NCBI GenBank assembly: GCA_963736005.1
Contig: CAVTNB010000003.1
Location: forward strand, 128,001 to 192,000
DNA from: an uncultured Pseudomonadota bacterium
GTDB lineage: Bacteria; Vulcanimicrobiota; Vulcanimicrobiia; Eremiobacterales; Eremiobacteraceae
DNA length: 64,000 nucleotides
Direction: 5' to 3'
The notes under the pieces: generated by a model
Seen by the model: the letters and a program-made list of their open reading frames with translations, nothing else
What the model was told of the DNA's origin: nothing
Database searches by the model: none
Translations under genes and position numbers: made by a program
In this document: in pieces, positions 5,733-53,747 of the stretch
How the letters are laid out: each line of letters starts with the position of its first letter
Position numbering within the stretch: position 1 is the stretch's first letter

Positions 5733-7138
5733 GAGACAAGGTCCTTTGCGACATGGGCGACTTGACAGTCGCCCGCTACAAGGTCGCCCACAATCTTGTC
5801 GACTTCGCAGAGTGCCCGTTGCGCGAGTTGCCGGCGGCGCTCTCGCTTATCACGAACTTTCTTGGGCAGCGGTGCCATATAAGCGAAAGAAACACTTTGT
5901 GGCTGGAAGTCTGCGCTCGTGTCATCGCGCAAGTACGCTAGGAGGCTACCGAGCGCAGTCGTCGGCGGTGGCAAGAACATTTCACCTTGCCCACTGAGGC
6001 GACGGCATGCGTTGTGTGCGGCGAGCATGCCCGTGGCCGCGGCTTCGACATAGCCTTCGCACCCACTGATCTGGCCGGCGAGAAATACATTGTGCGCATT
6101 GCGCAGCGAGAGATCTGCGTTGAGAACACGAGGCGCATCCACAAACGTGTTGCGATGCATCACTCCTAGTCTGAGCCATTCGGCGTTTGCAAGACCTGGG
6201 AGTTTCCCGAAGGTGGACTTTTGGGCGGGCCATGTGAGGCGTGTTTGAAAGCCGACCATATTGTAGGCCGTGCCGGCTGCGTTTTCGCGGCGCAGTTGAA
6301 CGACGGCGTAGGGGCGTGAAGGGGCGATTTGCCAATCGCCCCCTACGGGTTCGGCGAGTTGCGGAGCGTGCAGACCAACGGGCTTTAAGGGGCCGAAGCG
6401 GAGCGTGTCGGCTCCGCGGCGCGCCATTTCTTCTACCGGTAAGCAACCCTCGAAATACGGCATGGTCTCTTGTGTGGGTTCGTCTACGACCCCATGTGGT
6501 TGTGCCTTCGGACTCGTCACGAGATCCTGGACTAATTGAAGATATTGCTGCTCGTCCAACGGGATGTTCAGATAGTCCTCGCCGCCCTTACCATAGCGCG
6601 ATGCAGCGAAGACGCAAGAGCGATCGATCGAGTCTGCGCTTACAATGGGAGACGCGGCATCGAAATAGTGCAGATGGGGTTTGCCACACAATTGCGCGAG
6701 CGCCGCGGCCAGCGCGGGCGAGGCGAGCGGCCCGCACGCAACGATAACAGGATCGGAAAACTCGAGTGCTTGCACTTCCTCCCGTCGTACTTCGATCAGC
6801 GGATGACCGAGCAAGCGCTCTTCAACATAACGAGAGAATCTCTCGCGATCGACCGCCAATGCTCCGCCTGCGGGAACGGCTGTCGCGCGCGCCGCCGTCA
6901 CGATGAGCGAACCAAGCCGAGCCATCTCTTCCTTGAGCAACCCAACCGCGTTTTCCAGCGAGGTGGAACGCAAGCTATTGCTGCACACGAGTTCGGCGAA
7001 ATTGGCGGTTCGGTGCGCACCCGTGCTGACGTGCGGGCGCATTTCGTATAAGGTCACCGGGGCGCCGAGTTGCGCCGCCTGCCATGCAGCTTCGCAGCCG
7101 GCAAGCCCGCCCCCGATGATTCGCAGCCGATCCATCAT
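5729..7138 (-). CDS. trmFO: Folate/FAD-dependent tRNA m5U54 methyltransferase
   Basis: [42 protein letters not shown]; start MMDRLR overlaps the topA stop. Confidence 0.95.
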
Positions 7139-9352
7139 GCGCTGCGTTTTTGGCTTTGCTCTTCTTCCCTTTCCGGGGAGATGATGATTCCGCTCGCCTG
7201 CCCGTTGGGTGAGGTCACGGCCTCGACAAAACCATGCTCGTGGCTCCCGTCGACCGGGCAAACGATCTTACCCTCCGCCCGCCCATGCTTGCGGACGAGG
7301 AAAGAACCGCAGATGGCGCAGGCCGAACCGACGATTGGCGTATCCCAGGCAACAAACGTACACTCCGGATACTTCTCGCAGCCATAAAACACGCGGCCAC
7401 GCTTGCTTCGGCGCTCCAAGATTCGGCCGCCGTCGCGCGGGCAGATAACGCCGGAATCTTTGATAATTGGTCGCGTGGTCTTGCACTCCGGGTATCCCGA
7501 GCAGGCAAGGAACTTGCCAAAACGACCCGTCTTGATCTTCATTGGGCGCCCGCAGGTTGGACACACCTCGTCGGTCTCGTCTTCTACGAGCTCGACTTTT
7601 GGGAACAACTCTTCGGCAAGCTTGAGATCTGCCGCGAAGGGTCCGTAAAACGTGCGCAGCAAGGACACCCAATCGTCGTGAGCCTCCTCGACACGATCCA
7701 AACGCCGCTCCATCTCAGACGTAAAGTTGGCGTCGACAATCTCCTTGAAATGCTTCTCCAACAAGTCAGTGACGACAAAGCCAATCTCTTGCGGCACAAA
7801 GCGGCGTTCCATCAAGCGCACGTAGCCGCGTCCTTGTATGGTCTCGACGATGGTCGCGTAGGTGCTGGGACGTCCGATCCCTTTTTCTTCAAGCGCCTTG
7901 ACCAAGCTGGCTTCGGTGAAGCGTGGTGGCGGTTGCGTCTCGTGCTGTTCTGGGGTCACCTTGCGGGGGTCGAGGGCTTGACCTTCCTCCACGGCCGGTA
8001 GTTGCTTGCGTCGCTCCTCTTCTTCCGACGTATCCTCATCGCGAGTTTCTTCATAGATTGCGGTGTAGCCGGCAAACTTGAGCACGCTGCCAGTAGCGCG
8101 GAAGGCGCAATCGCCGGCAGTGATGTCGATGGTGGTCTGGTCGTACACTGCCGGTGACATCTGGCTAGCTACGAATCGTTCCCAGATGAGCTTATAAACC
8201 TTGAGCTGCGCTGCGTCCAGATACTGCGCCATGCTTTCAGGGGTTCGATTGACGTCGGTGGGTCGAATCGCTTCGTGAGCATCCTGCGCTGTCTCTGACA
8301 CTTTGTACTGGCGACCGCCGTGGAATTCCGCGCCGAAACGACCAATGATGTAGTCGCGCGCCATGCTCTGCGCCGTTTCCGAAAGCCGCGTTGAGTCCGT
8401 GCGCATATAGGTGATGAGACCGACCGTTCCGTCACCCGTGTCGACCCCTTCGTAGAGTCCTTGCGCCAGTTGCATCGTCTTACGCACGCGCATCTTCAGT
8501 CTACGTGACGCCTCTTGCTGCAGCGTGCTCGTGGTAAACGGACTGCGTGGAAAATCACGCCGCTCGGAGCGCTTGATGCCGGTAATCGAAAAGTGGGTTG
8601 TCTTCAAACGCTCGGCGAGCGCGTGCGCATCGTCGCTGGTTGTGACGTACATGCTCTTTTGGCCGACGGCGGCAGCCACGTCGGCGGGAACATTTGATTT
8701 CTTGCCTGCGACCGACACGAGATCCGCCACGAATGTATGTAAAGCATCGTGGTGCCCGTGCGGCCACAACGGTCGCGGAGACGGTCCAGTACTCGTGTTT
8801 GCGGAAGGCGGCGATTTCGCGTTCGCGATCGACAATAAGTTTCACCGCGACCGACTGCACGCGTCCAGCTGAGAGCCCGCCTCGAACCTTGCGCCACAGC
8901 AGCGGTGAAATCTGATAGCCGACAAGCCGATCCAGGATTCGACGCGCCTGCTGCGCATTGACTCGATCGGCGTTGATTGGGCTTGGGTTTTTCAGTGCTT
9001 CTTGGGCGGCGTGTTTGGTTATTTCATGGAGCTCAATGCGCTTGGGTTCCTGGAGTTTGAGCAGCTCCGCGAGATGCCAGGCGATGGCTTCCCCTTCGCG
9101 GTCGGGATCGGTGGCAAGATAGACATGAGTCGCCTTTTTGGCTGCGCTGCGCAACTCTTTGATGACGTCGCCCTTGCCTTTGATGGTCACATAGGAGGGC
9201 GTGAAGTCATGCTCGATATCGACGCCGAGGCGGCTCTTGGGAAGATCGCGGACGTGTCCGACCGACGCGAGTACTTGATATCGGGAGCCGAGGAATTTTT
9301 TGAGGGTACGGGCTTTCGCCGGTGACTCCACTATGATGAGGGACTTTGACAA
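7135..9352 (-). CDS. topA: DNA topoisomerase I with an apparent +1 frameshift near 8770 (probable sequencing error)
   Basis: N-terminal TOPRIM ([25 protein letters not shown]) in ORF 8555..9406; [25 protein letters not shown] and Zn ribbons in ORF 7135..8835. Confidence 0.93.
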
Positions 9353-9432
9353 ACTGGCCTTTCCGCATGAACCGCGTCGATTGAGCTCGACCGCTGCTCG
9401 GGACACCGTCCCCGATGGTTCAAACGTCCCCT

Positions 9433-9461
9433 ACTATACACTAGAGCGTCAAGGGTGTCAA
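9433..9461 (-). promoter_or_regulatory. Sigma70-type promoter of topA
   Basis: TTGACA, 17-bp spacer, TATAGT on the minus strand. Confidence 0.8.
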
Positions 9462-9497
9462 AAGCGGGACATATTTTATAGGGATTTGCAGACCTAG

Positions 9498-9808
9498 ATG
9501 TAGCAGCGGACCTTTAGGTCCGCTCTGGCGCAACTTGTATGTAGCAGCGGACCTTTAGGTCCGCTCTGGCGCAACTTGTATGTAGCAGCGGATCTTTAGG
9601 TCCGCTCTGGCGCAACTTGTATGTAGCAGCGGACCTTTAGGTCCGCTCTGGCTGCGACTTGTATGTAGCAGCGGATCTTTAGGTCCGCTCTGGCGCAACT
9701 TGTATGTAGCAGCGGATCTTTAGGTCCGCTCTGGCGCAACTTGTATGTAGCAGCGGATCTTTAGGTCTGCTCTGGCGCAACTTGTATGTAGCAGCGGATA
9801 TTTAGGTC
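9498..9808 (+). repeat. Tandem array of 41-bp REP family-1 units (7 full plus 1 partial)
   Basis: Unit ATGTAGCAGCGGACCTTTAGGTCCGCTCTGGCGCAACTTGT starts at 9498, 9539, 9580, 9621, 9663, 9704, 9745 and 9786. Confidence 0.95.
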
Positions 9809-9812
9809 TCCC

Positions 9813-10274
9813 TTAGCACCAAGGGTCCGGCGCGCCCGAAAATTGGTACTCTTGCGCTTCAGTCACCAAACCAGCTCGAACTGGATTCAATCTGATGTAG
9901 CGCGCAAAGTCGTGAGCATCTTCATAATCCCTCTTGATCCGCTCGTGGAAACCTCGCATCCATGAAACATCCGCGTGAGGTTTTGCATAGTGCCTGATTC
10001 CAGACTTAATCACTGCAACGAGCATGTCCAACCGAGTGCTGCCTAGGCGAAGCTTGAGCAGCAGGTGGATGTGATCAGGCATTATGCAATATGCATACAG
10101 GTAGTAGCGACCAGCCTGCCGATATCGCATGATCACGCCTTTCGCGATTTCGGCGATTTTCGGATCAGCGAAGGCCGGCGCGCGGTTTTTGGTACACATC
10201 GTTATGAAGTATGTGCGCTCCGCGCAATAGTCAAAGCCTTTCAGTCTTGGTGGCCGCATGGTAAAGCGATTCAT
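9813..10274 (-). mobile_element. REP-associated tyrosine transposase (RAYT/TnpA-REP, Y1 HUH family)
   Basis: TYFIT, CIMPDHIHLL (HUH), YIRLNPVRAGLV (catalytic Tyr plus NP motif); flanked by oppositely oriented GTAG REPs. Confidence 0.9.
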
Positions 10275-10313
10275 GGTGTCGCAATATCACGCGCGGTCAT
10301 CGCAAAAACAATA

Positions 10314-10379
10314 AGCGGACCTGAAGGTCCGCTGCTACATTTTTGCGATTGTGAGCGGACCTAAAGGTCCGCTACTACA
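10314..10379 (-). repeat. Two REP family-1 copies upstream of the RAYT
   Basis: agcggacctgaaggtccgctgctacat and gagcggacctaaaggtccgctactaca; the second overlaps the oppF 3' end. Confidence 0.9.
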
Positions 10380-11398
10380 CTTGTGGTGGGGCGAATCTCG
10401 GGCTGGGCGCCCCCGAGTTCCTGAACCTTGTGGCAGGCGACTTGATGCCCGTTATAGCTGAGCAGCTCGGGCACTTCTGTGTAGCAACGGTCGAACGCGA
10501 TTGGACAGCGGGTATGAAAGCGACAACCGCTCGGCGGGTTGAGCGGCGAGGGAATGTCGCCTTGCAAAATGATGCGCTCGCGCCGGGCTTCGATCCTCGG
10601 ATCAGGGATGGGGATGGCGGAAAGTAGCGCTTGCGTGTACGGGTGCAACGGCCGCTCGTACAACTGGTCGCGGCTTGCGACTTCCATAATCTTGCCCACG
10701 TACATGACTGCGACGCGATCCGAAATGTGGCGCACCACCGATAGATCGTGCGCGATAAAAAGGTAGGTGAGATCGAGTTGCTCTTGCAGATCTTGCAGCA
10801 AGTTGACTACTTGCGCTTGGATGGAGACATCGAGCGCTGAGACTGGTTCATCCGCCACGATAAACTTCGGATTGACCGCAAGGGCCCTAGCAACACCAAT
10901 GCGCTGCCGCTGGCCACCCGAAAACTCGTGCGGATACCGATTCGCATGATACGGTGACAAGCCGACAGTGCGCAGCAACTCGTGCACCCGCGCGTCTACC
11001 GCTTTGCCGCGTGCCAGACGGTGAATGATGAGAGGTTCTGCGACGATGTCGCCCACCGTCATGCGCGGGTTCAGGCTTGCGTACGGGTCCTGAAAGATGA
11101 TCTGCATTTCTTTGCGCAGCGAGCGCATGACTTTTCGAGGCACGTGGGTGATGTCTTGGCCTTCAAAGATGACGTTGCCACTGGTCGGCTCGAGAAGCCG
11201 CAGCACGCAGCGCCCTAGGGTCGTCTTGCCGGAGCCGGATTCGCCCACGAGGCCGAGCGTCTCGCCGCGATCGATCCTAAAACTGACGCCGTCAACCGCT
11301 TTGACGTCCGCGACGTGACGGGAGAACACACCGTGCGTGACGGGGAAGTACTTGACGAGGTCGCGGACCTCGAGGATTTGTTCTTTCTGGTCAGCCAC
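10361..11398 (-). CDS. oppF: Oligopeptide/dipeptide ABC transporter ATPase (OppF/DppF)
   Basis: [41 protein letters not shown]. Confidence 0.92.
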
Positions 11399-24252: not shown

Positions 24253-24455
24253 TAACGCGCGAATACATTCGCGCGACTACATGGGATTCTTGAAGCGAGC
24301 CAAAATGTAGTGTCGCGAATTCATTCGCGACCAAGAATAACGCGCGAATAAATTCGCGCAACTACATGGGATTCTTGAAGCGAGCCAAAATGTAGTGTCG
24401 CGAATTCATTCGCGACCAAAAATAACGCGCGAATAAATTCGCGCAACTACATGGG
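24253..24455. repeat. BIME-like mosaic: 85-bp period, about 2.4 copies, five alternating REP family-2 palindromes
   Basis: Units start at 24253, 24338 and 24423; each full unit has two oppositely oriented GTAG palindromes and constant linkers. Confidence 0.9.
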
Positions 24456-27971: not shown

Positions 27972-29786
27972 GTCCGCTTGAAAGCTCGGGCGAGCGCTTC
28001 CGCATTGAAGCGCAGCGTCGTCGGCCTCCCATGCGGGCAGGTCTGCGGATCACGGCAGACCCGCAAGCGTTCGTACAGCGTCAACTGCTCCGCAACGCTG
28101 AGCGGTTCGTGCGCTCTGACGACCGAGTGACAAGCAACCGTTGCAAGGAGCTTGTGTCGACGCCGGCTTGCAGCGCTGTTGCCGCCGGAGCGGACCTGAA
28201 GGTCCGCTGCTACATTGTCCGCTGCTACCATTTTCCGCTGCTGCATTTTCCGCTGCTACATTTTCCGCTGCTGCATTTTCCGCTGCTACATTATCTGCTC
28301 CATTTGCCAGATCGTCGAGCACGCCAGCGAGATCGAAGCGGCGTTCACCGTAACCCGATGGCAATGCGCTCAAGCGGTACGCATCATCGCCAAACGGCTC
28401 GACCACGACACCCATGGCGATGAGATCGTCTTGGGAAGTTTCAAGCGTTGCGATCTGATCCGGCGTGAGCGAAACGATGCGCGGCAGGAGCAACGGCGCG
28501 GATGCTTCCATCACGCCGGCCCGTGCTTCAAGCGCCTCGAAGGCGATGCGTTCGTGAGCAGCGTGCTGGTCGATGATGAGCAGCTCGTGCCGGTCGCTGA
28601 TCACGATAAAGGTTTGATCGATTTGCCCAAGAGCCCGAGGCCCTCCGTCGAGGTTTTTCGATGGGTCCTCAGCTGAGCCGTCGAGGAGGGAAATTGCAGC
28701 TGCCTCCCCTGCGCCAGCATTACCGGGCGAAAATGGACTCGACGCGGACAGCGGACCGGTGGGTGCGGGCGCTTGGGAAGCGGACCCCGCTCGCAGCGCC
28801 TCATCGACCGCGCTGCGCACGACGTCGAAAACCGCGGCCGCACTCACGAAGCGCACTTCGATTTTGGTCGGATGAACATTGACATCAACGTCGCCGGGCG
28901 CAAGCGAGAGCATAAGGACCCCGTAGGGATAGCGTCCAGTCATCAATTTGTTCGCATAGGCTGCCGACCACGCGGTGCTCAAGGCAGGACTGCGGACCAA
29001 TCGGCCGTTGACAAAAATAACTTGGCCGTGCCGATTCGGACGATCCACTCCGATGCGCGACGTGAAGCCACCAATACCTATCATCATGTTTGGGGATGTG
29101 CTGACGTTCGTGAGCGATCCGCGACTGCCGCGACCGAAGACCATCTCCAAGCGGTCAACAGGAGCGCCAACTGCGGGCAACGACCAGACGTCCCGCCCTT
29201 CATGCCGCAGAGAAAAAGCAACCTTGGGCCAGCCAAGCGCAATGCGCGAGAGAAAGGCGCTGATGCGGGCGAACTCGCCCTTGTCGCTTCCAAGAAAATC
29301 CCGGCGAACGGGTGTGGCCGCAAAGAGATCGCGCACGACAACTTTGGTGCCAGGCGAAGCCGCCACGGGCTGAATGCTGCCGGCAACGCCGTTGCGAACG
29401 GCGACCCGAGCGCCAAAATTCTGCCCCGAGGCCCGTGAGATGATTTCAAGGTTGCCAGCAGCTGCGGCAATGCTCGCGAGCCCCTCACCGCGAAACCCAA
29501 GGGTTCGAATCGAAAACAAATCTGTTGCGCTCGACAGCTTGCTCGTGCCATGCCGATGCAAGGCAAGCGGCAGGTCTTCGGAAATGATGCCCCGCCCGTC
29601 ATCTTGCACGATAATTTCCGTGCGACCACCACCGCGCAGCTCGACGGCGACCCAAGATGCGCCAGCGTCAAGGCTGTTCTCGATGAGTTCTTTGACCACC
29701 GACACGGGCCGCTCGATGACTTCTCCGGCGGCAATCTGGGAAATGGTGGCTTCGTCGAGTAAACGGATGCGCTCCAACGTTTGCAC
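27968..29786 (-). CDS. mutL: DNA mismatch repair endonuclease MutL with an apparent +1 frameshift at about 28228 inside a REP-derived repeat
   Basis: IAAGEVIERP, GFRGEGL, DVNVHPTK, DQHAAHER in ORF 28050..29786; ACHS and CPHGRP in ORF 27968..28246. Confidence 0.93.
28188..28292 (-). repeat. REP family-1 copy plus five extra tandem 15-bp REP-head units inside mutL
   Basis: (AATG[T/C]AGCAGCGGA[A/C]) x6 running into CTTCAGGTCCGCTC. Confidence 0.9.
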
Positions 29787-36386: not shown

Positions 36387-36454
36387 TGTAGCAGCGCACC
36401 TTTAGGTGCGCTCGATACTCTGCATCCGGAGCGGACCTGAAGGTCCGCTGCTAC
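36387..36454. repeat. Inverted REP family-1 doublet (REPIN/BIME-like)
   Basis: tgtagcagcgcacctttaggtgcgctc ... gagcggacctgaaggtccgctgctac. Confidence 0.88.
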
Positions 36455-53723: not shown

Positions 53724-53747
53724 GTAGCAGCGGACCTTAGGTCCGCT
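53724..53747 (+). repeat. REP family-1 copy
   Basis: gtagcagcggaccttaggtccgct. Confidence 0.85.

Follow-up and report, generated by a model that had tools for sequence, protein, structure and literature searches.

The closest described counterparts of the locus analysed here come from Pseudomonas and Stenotrophomonas, whose RAYT/REPIN systems of group 3 (subclass 2.5 of Quentin) are presented in the open text of PMC3116915, PMC8266576, PMC6006769 and 10.1101/2022.05.22.493013. In the leading model of REP spread, only inverted doublets replicate. In SBW25, 18% of the REPs are singlets, which the open text of PMC3116915 and 10.1101/2022.05.22.493013 holds to be defunct remnants, with P. stutzeri as an exception; the former text also describes evenly spaced, same-strand arrays of GI REPs in SBW25. 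As RAYTs come and go in P. chlororaphis, REP types are replaced at orthologous sites (open text of 10.1101/2024.10.14.618302). Singles predominate in GTAG families 14, 16 and 24 according to the accessible part of Di Nocera 2013 (PMC3733652), which also reports clusters of singletons tandemly repeated together with flanking DNA. The open text of PMC8266576 deals with RAYTs other than the present one, which bind a REP folded from single-stranded DNA, cut between C and T and carry out strand transfer.

A second point of comparison is the E. coli REPtron (group 2; PDB 4ER8), which, like the system studied here, has one fixed locus with a variable number of 3′ repeats, and whose gene has been lost or replaced in some lineages and inverted in one strain (open text of PMC3333891). 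Strand transfer or a rolling circle has been put forward there as the route by which the repeats multiply. Unlike the present locus, the E. coli units are BIMEs (a REP with an inverted REP) with bulged stems, and the E. coli RayT, 23% identical to the protein described below, has a C-terminal tail. We found no report of a RAYT–REP system from the phylum of the host in the literature consulted, chiefly open texts without supplements or figures; same-strand REPtrons may already appear in Fig. 7c of Quentin 2018 and in Additional file 4 of Di Nocera.

The DNA analysed, referred to as the window, is a 64-kb stretch (G000:C3:128001-192000) of the source genome G000 (2.84 Mb in 6 contigs, 84% complete). 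Labels on two homologues make Candidatus Eremiobacterota the likely host group. As in group 3, the REPs are short, perfect GTAG palindromes, the protein lacks a long C-terminal tail, and the genome has several divergent RAYTs, each with its own REP family (about 150–215 copies) and with REP clusters beside the gene. The locus in the window, RAYT-A, is a genuine RAYT locus, and the age gradient claimed for its array is unsupported. We consider it fairly probable that the array arose by local tandem duplication, that a single REP is the unit that spreads, and that the gene with its REPs is an old cassette subject to allele exchange. Same-strand runs beside the genes, a bias to the sense strand, and REPs that are mostly unpaired and well kept, in three co-resident RAYT systems, allow a simple test of the view that only doublets replicate.

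The RAYT-A gene and its flanking REPs

Against NF047646, the profile for RAYTs (cut-off 80), the RAYT-A protein scores 104.6 bits; its best PDB match is 4ER8, the E. coli TnpA-REP. The HUH motif is formed by His68 and His70, and the tyrosine lies in a Y126-x3-NP motif; in an alignment with E. coli RayT, residues H68, H70, W105, R115, Y126, N130 and P131 are invariant. The conserved Trp and Arg belong to the GTAG-binding region, where the Gln that follows the Trp is replaced by Met in RAYT-A. An IS200/IS605 TnpA shares with RAYT-A the HUH/Y1 core and the recognition of a hairpin plus a tetranucleotide; unlike such an enzyme, RAYT-A stays at 21.9 bits against the IS200 TnpA model NF033573, below the cut-off of 55, carries the Y-x3-NP signature and has no near-identical copy in G000. 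The other two RAYTs of this genome, RAYT-B and RAYT-C, are 45–46% identical to RAYT-A, and each of the three is flanked by its own REP family (A, B and C, respectively). The HUH and tyrosine motifs, the Trp/Arg pair, the profile score, the inverted GT(A/G)G REPs on either side, and the abundance of the flanking REP together with the uniqueness of the gene in G000 all agree with membership of the RAYT/TnpA-REP group.

In a tree of 43 rows, built without IS200, G013 and G011 and without near-duplicate sequences or loci that are partial or contain stops, the RAYTs of the bacterial family form one clade (83/86), and E. coli RayT is placed far from it. The sister of this clade (98/91) consists of two gammaproteobacterial RAYTs from plasmid records, which we take to be group 3 from their genus and motifs rather than from a published label, in a tree without labelled references for subclasses 2.4 and 2.6–2.8. 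The original prediction, an intact HUH tyrosine transposase of the RAYT type and not an ordinary IS200 TnpA, is borne out by the profile scores, the motifs and the tree.

All ten REPs at the gene, two upstream and eight downstream, have their GTAG heads facing it (Table 1). This arrangement of two upstream REPs and eight head-to-tail units had been read correctly from the start, but the period is not a uniform 41 bp: unit 4 is 42 bp long and has an altered spacer, the other full units being 41 bp. On the plus strand the units begin, as assembled, at 9498, 9539, 9580, 9621, 9663, 9704, 9745 and 9786. The last unit, previously described as truncated, retains a REP core of full length with five changes, and the RAYT stop codon sits where its spacer would be. 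Six of the seven spacers are identical. A CRISPR array was considered and rejected, as it needs unique spacers.

Table 1. Features of the RAYT-A locus (window coordinates)
Feature	Position	Strand	Remarks
RAYT-A (TnpA-REP) gene	9813..10274	-	153 aa; open frame; HUH and catalytic Tyr
Downstream array of 8 family-A REPs	9498..9812	+	GTAG head, 9-bp stem; seven full units of 41-42 bp and a degenerate eighth
Inner upstream REP	10314..10338	-	Perfect stem
Outer upstream REP	10354..10378	-	Perfect stem; contains the oppF-like stop codon
Whole cassette	9479..10382	.	904 bp; replaced by 52-53 other bases with one family-B REP in L133/run X1 and G002
Sigma-70-like promoter match ahead of topA	9433..9461	-	11/12; just outside the cassette, retained in empty alleles
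oppF-like oligopeptide ABC transporter ATPase gene	10361..11398	-	Flanking gene marking the locus
topA	7135..9406	-	Flanking gene; two frames in the assembly, one extra base at ~8771 relative to L133

Together with its T-rich tail, the inner upstream REP, which lies between the oppF-like gene and RAYT-A, matches a pattern resembling a terminator. TTGAC or TTGTC often follows the inner upstream REP (loci L002-L026) and may be the -35 box of a RAYT promoter, and promoter prediction called no RAYT promoter with such a box in the window. At 10361-10380 the oppF-like reading frame extends into the outer REP, which supplies its stop codon, within the stem in the filled allele and in the GTAG head of the REP in both empty alleles. 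The split of topA is likely an assembly error, or otherwise a recent pseudogene.

Instead of the roughly 16 further family-A copies first counted in the window, we find 13 whole ones (at most three mismatches), another at 53724 that has lost 1 nt, and half-copies in a run at 28203-28292. This run belongs to a minus-strand stretch (28189-28292) in which a family-A REP precedes about six head-to-tail repeats, 15 bp each, of its own first half, and a similar half-REP run lies on the topA side of the RAYT-A of G003 (L003). Half-REP runs such as the one at 28203-28292 occur away from any RAYT, and short tandem runs are present at other sites too; the half-REP runs suggest slippage or cutting inside the hairpin and, for the arrays, growth through slippage or unequal recombination. 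Family-B REPs are repeated in tandem with a period of 85 at 24253-24455, likewise away from any RAYT.

Variation within the array and in the arrays of relatives

Counted from the far end towards the gene, units 1 to 8 carry 0, 0, 1, 0, 1, 1, 2 and 5 core mismatches. No more than five distinct changes account for these: C12T, shared by units 3, 5, 6, 7 and 8, C22T, shared by units 7 and 8, and three that are private to unit 8. Because C12T is rare in dispersed copies (8 of 181), five independent hits in the array are very unlikely (p ~8e-6), and the units have copied changes from each other. With changes that are nested and shared, the position of a unit is not its age; judged from the sequences, this is the pattern expected of tandem duplication.

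The arrays of related genomes provide a second view of polarity. A RAYT match is present in 17 of 31 other genomes of the bacterial family, and 23 loci were examined, leaving out G013, two weak hits and two partial hits in G030. REPs flank 19 of the 23, all pointing inward, and none of the 29 other runs of at least two units mixes orientations. The orthologous gene in G003 is followed by six perfect units, and a RAYT in G020 is preceded by nine. In the 11 runs of at least three units the inner unit is the worse one in none, the outer unit in six, and the two are equal in five; over all 29 runs the corresponding numbers are 3, 9 and 17, the loci being kin and the counts hence not independent samples. 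The head-to-tail, inward layout is therefore the norm of this RAYT clade and not, as first thought, unusual; the array is an ordinary variable tandem repeat, and its polarity is a local exception.

The original prediction went further, in that the RAYT would add units directionally or by a rolling-circle-like process, the gene-proximal units would be oldest, and the array would seed the family of the genome. We regard this as quite unlikely. A trend of perfect far units and changed near units is real (Spearman 0.88, permutation p 0.0036, calculated as if the units were independent, which they are not), the hairpin energy declines towards the gene from -9.3 kcal/mol in unit 1 through -6.0 in unit 3 to -2.8 in unit 7, with no REP hairpin formed by unit 8, arrays adjoin RAYT genes across the bacterial family, and rolling-circle-like amplification beside a RAYT has already been modelled, for E. 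coli in the open text of PMC3333891 and also in that of PMC2817692. The order is not strict, however, an imperfect unit 3 coming before a perfect unit 4; the mutations are shared and nested rather than private, and the polarity does not recur in any of the relatives' 11 arrays, an outcome named with the prediction itself as one that would refute it, so that the trend stands but its reading as an age gradient does not. As to seeding, the array spacer was found beside none of the dispersed family-A copies, whose shared flank ends about 2 bases before and about 1 base after the 25-mer, and the array is therefore not the template.

Errors of long-read assembly or consensus, or hits at a methylation hotspot, are a very improbable source of the array or its variants. 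The likely indel error in topA makes the extra base of unit 4 suspect too, and run X3 has a contig of 71 nt (9639-9710, depth 2.5) that differs from the window by two letters and one gap, as an unmutated unit would. But this contig is as long as a 41-bp cycle would be when collapsed, which makes it likely that the head-to-tail junction is also present outside this assembly; like arrays are present in many other assemblies, there is no excess of window-specific substitutions, and runs X2 and X4, which may stem from one campaign with X3, contain pieces of the RAYT gene with 0–1 differences. A 5mC hotspot at GGWCC causing GACC-to-GATC changes, hinted at by column counts, was rejected: no PF00145 match for a C5 methyltransferase was found in the 84% complete G000, and five of the eight dispersed C12T copies are compensated.

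Under the local duplication that we favour, one REP with about 16 bases of flank would have been duplicated in place, not added in order of age. The first duplication beside the gene could have been primed by the RAYT or have arisen by slippage at the hairpin; later growth was probably due to slippage or to unequal recombination. Copying primed by the RAYT would leave the same sequence as slippage does, and RAYT-primed amplification may have taken part. Five units would thereby have come to carry one C-to-T change, probably helped by the copying of units 2-3 as a block to units 4-5, which we infer as the simplest explanation for the perfect–mutant–perfect–mutant alternation of units 2-5. The unit at the gene-adjacent end would be the worst kept since it likely escapes homogenisation, an argument that explains only loosely why the RAYT-A array is the single one of 12 with its inner unit worst. 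Arrays would start from one REP plus its 3′ flank, as suggested by the match between the spacer and the 3′ flank of the inner unit at RAYT-C of G003 (10 of 12 bases) and at the RAYT-A locus (7 of 14, p 0.04); this match fails in several arrays, with 0–4 of 12 in six of 11.

Single REPs across the genome

Family A has 204 copies in G000 at up to five mismatches, 68 of them identical to the master. When a partner was sought within 200 bp at up to seven mismatches, singles made up 127 of the 190 copies of family A, 111 of the 215 of family B and 109 of the 153 of family C (52–71%), and an inverted partner was present for 32, 22 and 1 copies of these families, respectively. By a hand count at two mismatches in the fragmented assembly of G001, 52 of 70 copies are single and 14 have an inverted partner. 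Family-A singles are identical to the master in 49 of 127 cases and paired copies in 7 of 32 (p 0.10), and stems are intact in 87 of 127 singles and 26 of 32 paired copies (p 0.19). Unlike the group 3 REPs of SBW25, then, those of families A, B and C and of G001 are not mainly inverted doublets, the singlets of family A are not decayed relative to its doublets, and the flanking runs lie on one strand without inverted partners. Nor do they fit BIMEs and group 2, given runs of uniform orientation, perfect stems and the lack of a C-terminal tail. REPs that are mostly unpaired and not more decayed than pairs speak against the REPIN model.

RAYT-A is the only one of the three RAYTs of G000 that family-A REPs flank. 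Over some 400 kb of synteny, family A numbers 47 copies in G000 (19 perfect, and 9 of the 47 at the RAYT-A locus) versus 15 (1 perfect) in the sister species G002, an 83% complete genome with a match to RAYT-C only and without RAYT-A; family C shows the reverse, 24 in G000 versus 52 in G002. From its sole association with family A, and from a family that is larger and more uniform than in G002, RAYT-A is likely the enzyme serving family A. Rough automatic tags at 40 loci gave 12 with A, 7 with another family, 13 with none and 8 unanchored, some of the A tags coming from overlapping anchors. At C3:174520, an A REP in G000 is swapped for a C REP between the same flanks in G002.

We lean slightly towards a single REP as the mobile unit of the bacterial family's own RAYT clade. 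By analogy with the enzymes in the open text of PMC8266576, RAYT-A would bind one folded single-stranded REP and cut beside it, between C and T. The cut or copied single REP, not a doublet, would then be joined to an intergenic site elsewhere or placed over an existing REP, and joining would favour the sense strand of operons. Singles between co-directional genes lie on the sense strand in 85 cases versus 25 (p 8e-9, from crude ORF calls); cumulative GC skew gave no clear replication origin in G000, so a lagging-strand and a sense-strand bias are indistinguishable here. The 32 of 190 family-A copies in inverted pairs, many of them asymmetric, count against a single-REP unit, and singles could be relics of doublets from which the partner was cleanly deleted. 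A testable question is whether the 153-aa enzyme can excise and insert one 28-nt hairpin.

We note that the inverted pairs of family A, in G000 and G001, often combine a GGAC-stem with a GCAC-stem copy; such asymmetric doublets, a minor class, occur in the window at 36388/36430 and 44087/44120. In addition, 29 of the 190 copies of family A have a B or C neighbour within 100 bp, which may point to shared hot spots.

Filled and empty alleles of the oppF–topA site

The contig L133 from a metagenome, with flanks 97.9% and 97.6% identical to the window, joins 9478 to 10383 through 53 other bases that carry one family-B REP. Run X1 has the same allele, counted as empty since a contig joins across the site and RAYT coverage is lacking; L133 and run X1 share alleles and are therefore one observation. 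G002 (flanks 91–93% identical) has the same empty allele. The outer upstream REP of the filled allele occupies the place and orientation of the lone family-B REP, and its base at position 5 is T, which is the family-B state and occurs in 2 of 204 A copies. Such a pair of filled and empty alleles is a natural case of RAYT gain, inversion and loss.

A recent arrival of the cassette is an unlikely alternative, in which the RAYT would have carried itself and its REPs to a site with a family-B REP and overwritten it as in the REP swaps; that a single-REP unit and overwriting sometimes carry a RAYT gene into REP-marked sites, with this cassette as a recent case, seems to us unlikely as well, and if true would break the claims that singlets are dead doublet remnants and that RAYTs never move themselves. 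L133 and G002 bracket G000, share the empty allele, and the flanks hold no imported tract (window-specific versus L133-specific SNPs, 18 versus 19 and 16 versus 18), so that simple parsimony, applied to three genomes, favours recent gain. The sharp junctions of the cassette, the B-like position and T5 of the outer REP, the single A-for-C swaps at orthologous sites, and RAYT loci of the bacterial family that map, by our own count, to about 14 places in G000 point the same way. Against a recent arrival, the nearest RAYTs, those of the congeners G001 and G003 (62–63% identical), already occupy, in inverted orientation, the interval between the oppF-like gene and topA, and the RAYT-A copies group together in the 43-row tree (87/81). 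The divergence of RAYT-A fits vertical descent, its identity to the G003 counterpart (62%) being close to that of RAYT-C (60%) and RAYT-B (71%), and G000 has no near-identical RAYT copies. The topA-side flank, represented by the 19 bases that precede unit 1, is homologous to that of the empty allele though diverged (p 0.007), and not unrelated donor DNA. Moreover, the strain with the empty allele shares family-A sites, as X1 contigs cover or break near 36400, 44120 and 50500, and the evidence of L133 and run X1 counts only once.

The cassette is thus likely an old, inverted, polymorphic resident allele of the oppF–topA site, as far as sequence comparison can tell. As an old resident, it would have been inverted between its inverted REPs, and homologous exchange of alleles would account for its gain and loss in closely related lineages.

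Elsewhere in G000, at C1:1932165-1932245, REPs of families B, C and A are stacked at a site where G014 (L024) and G013 (L004, unpublished) carry RAYTs, which lie in opposite orientations and have different REPs; those of the G013 gene are GAAG-headed and close to family A.
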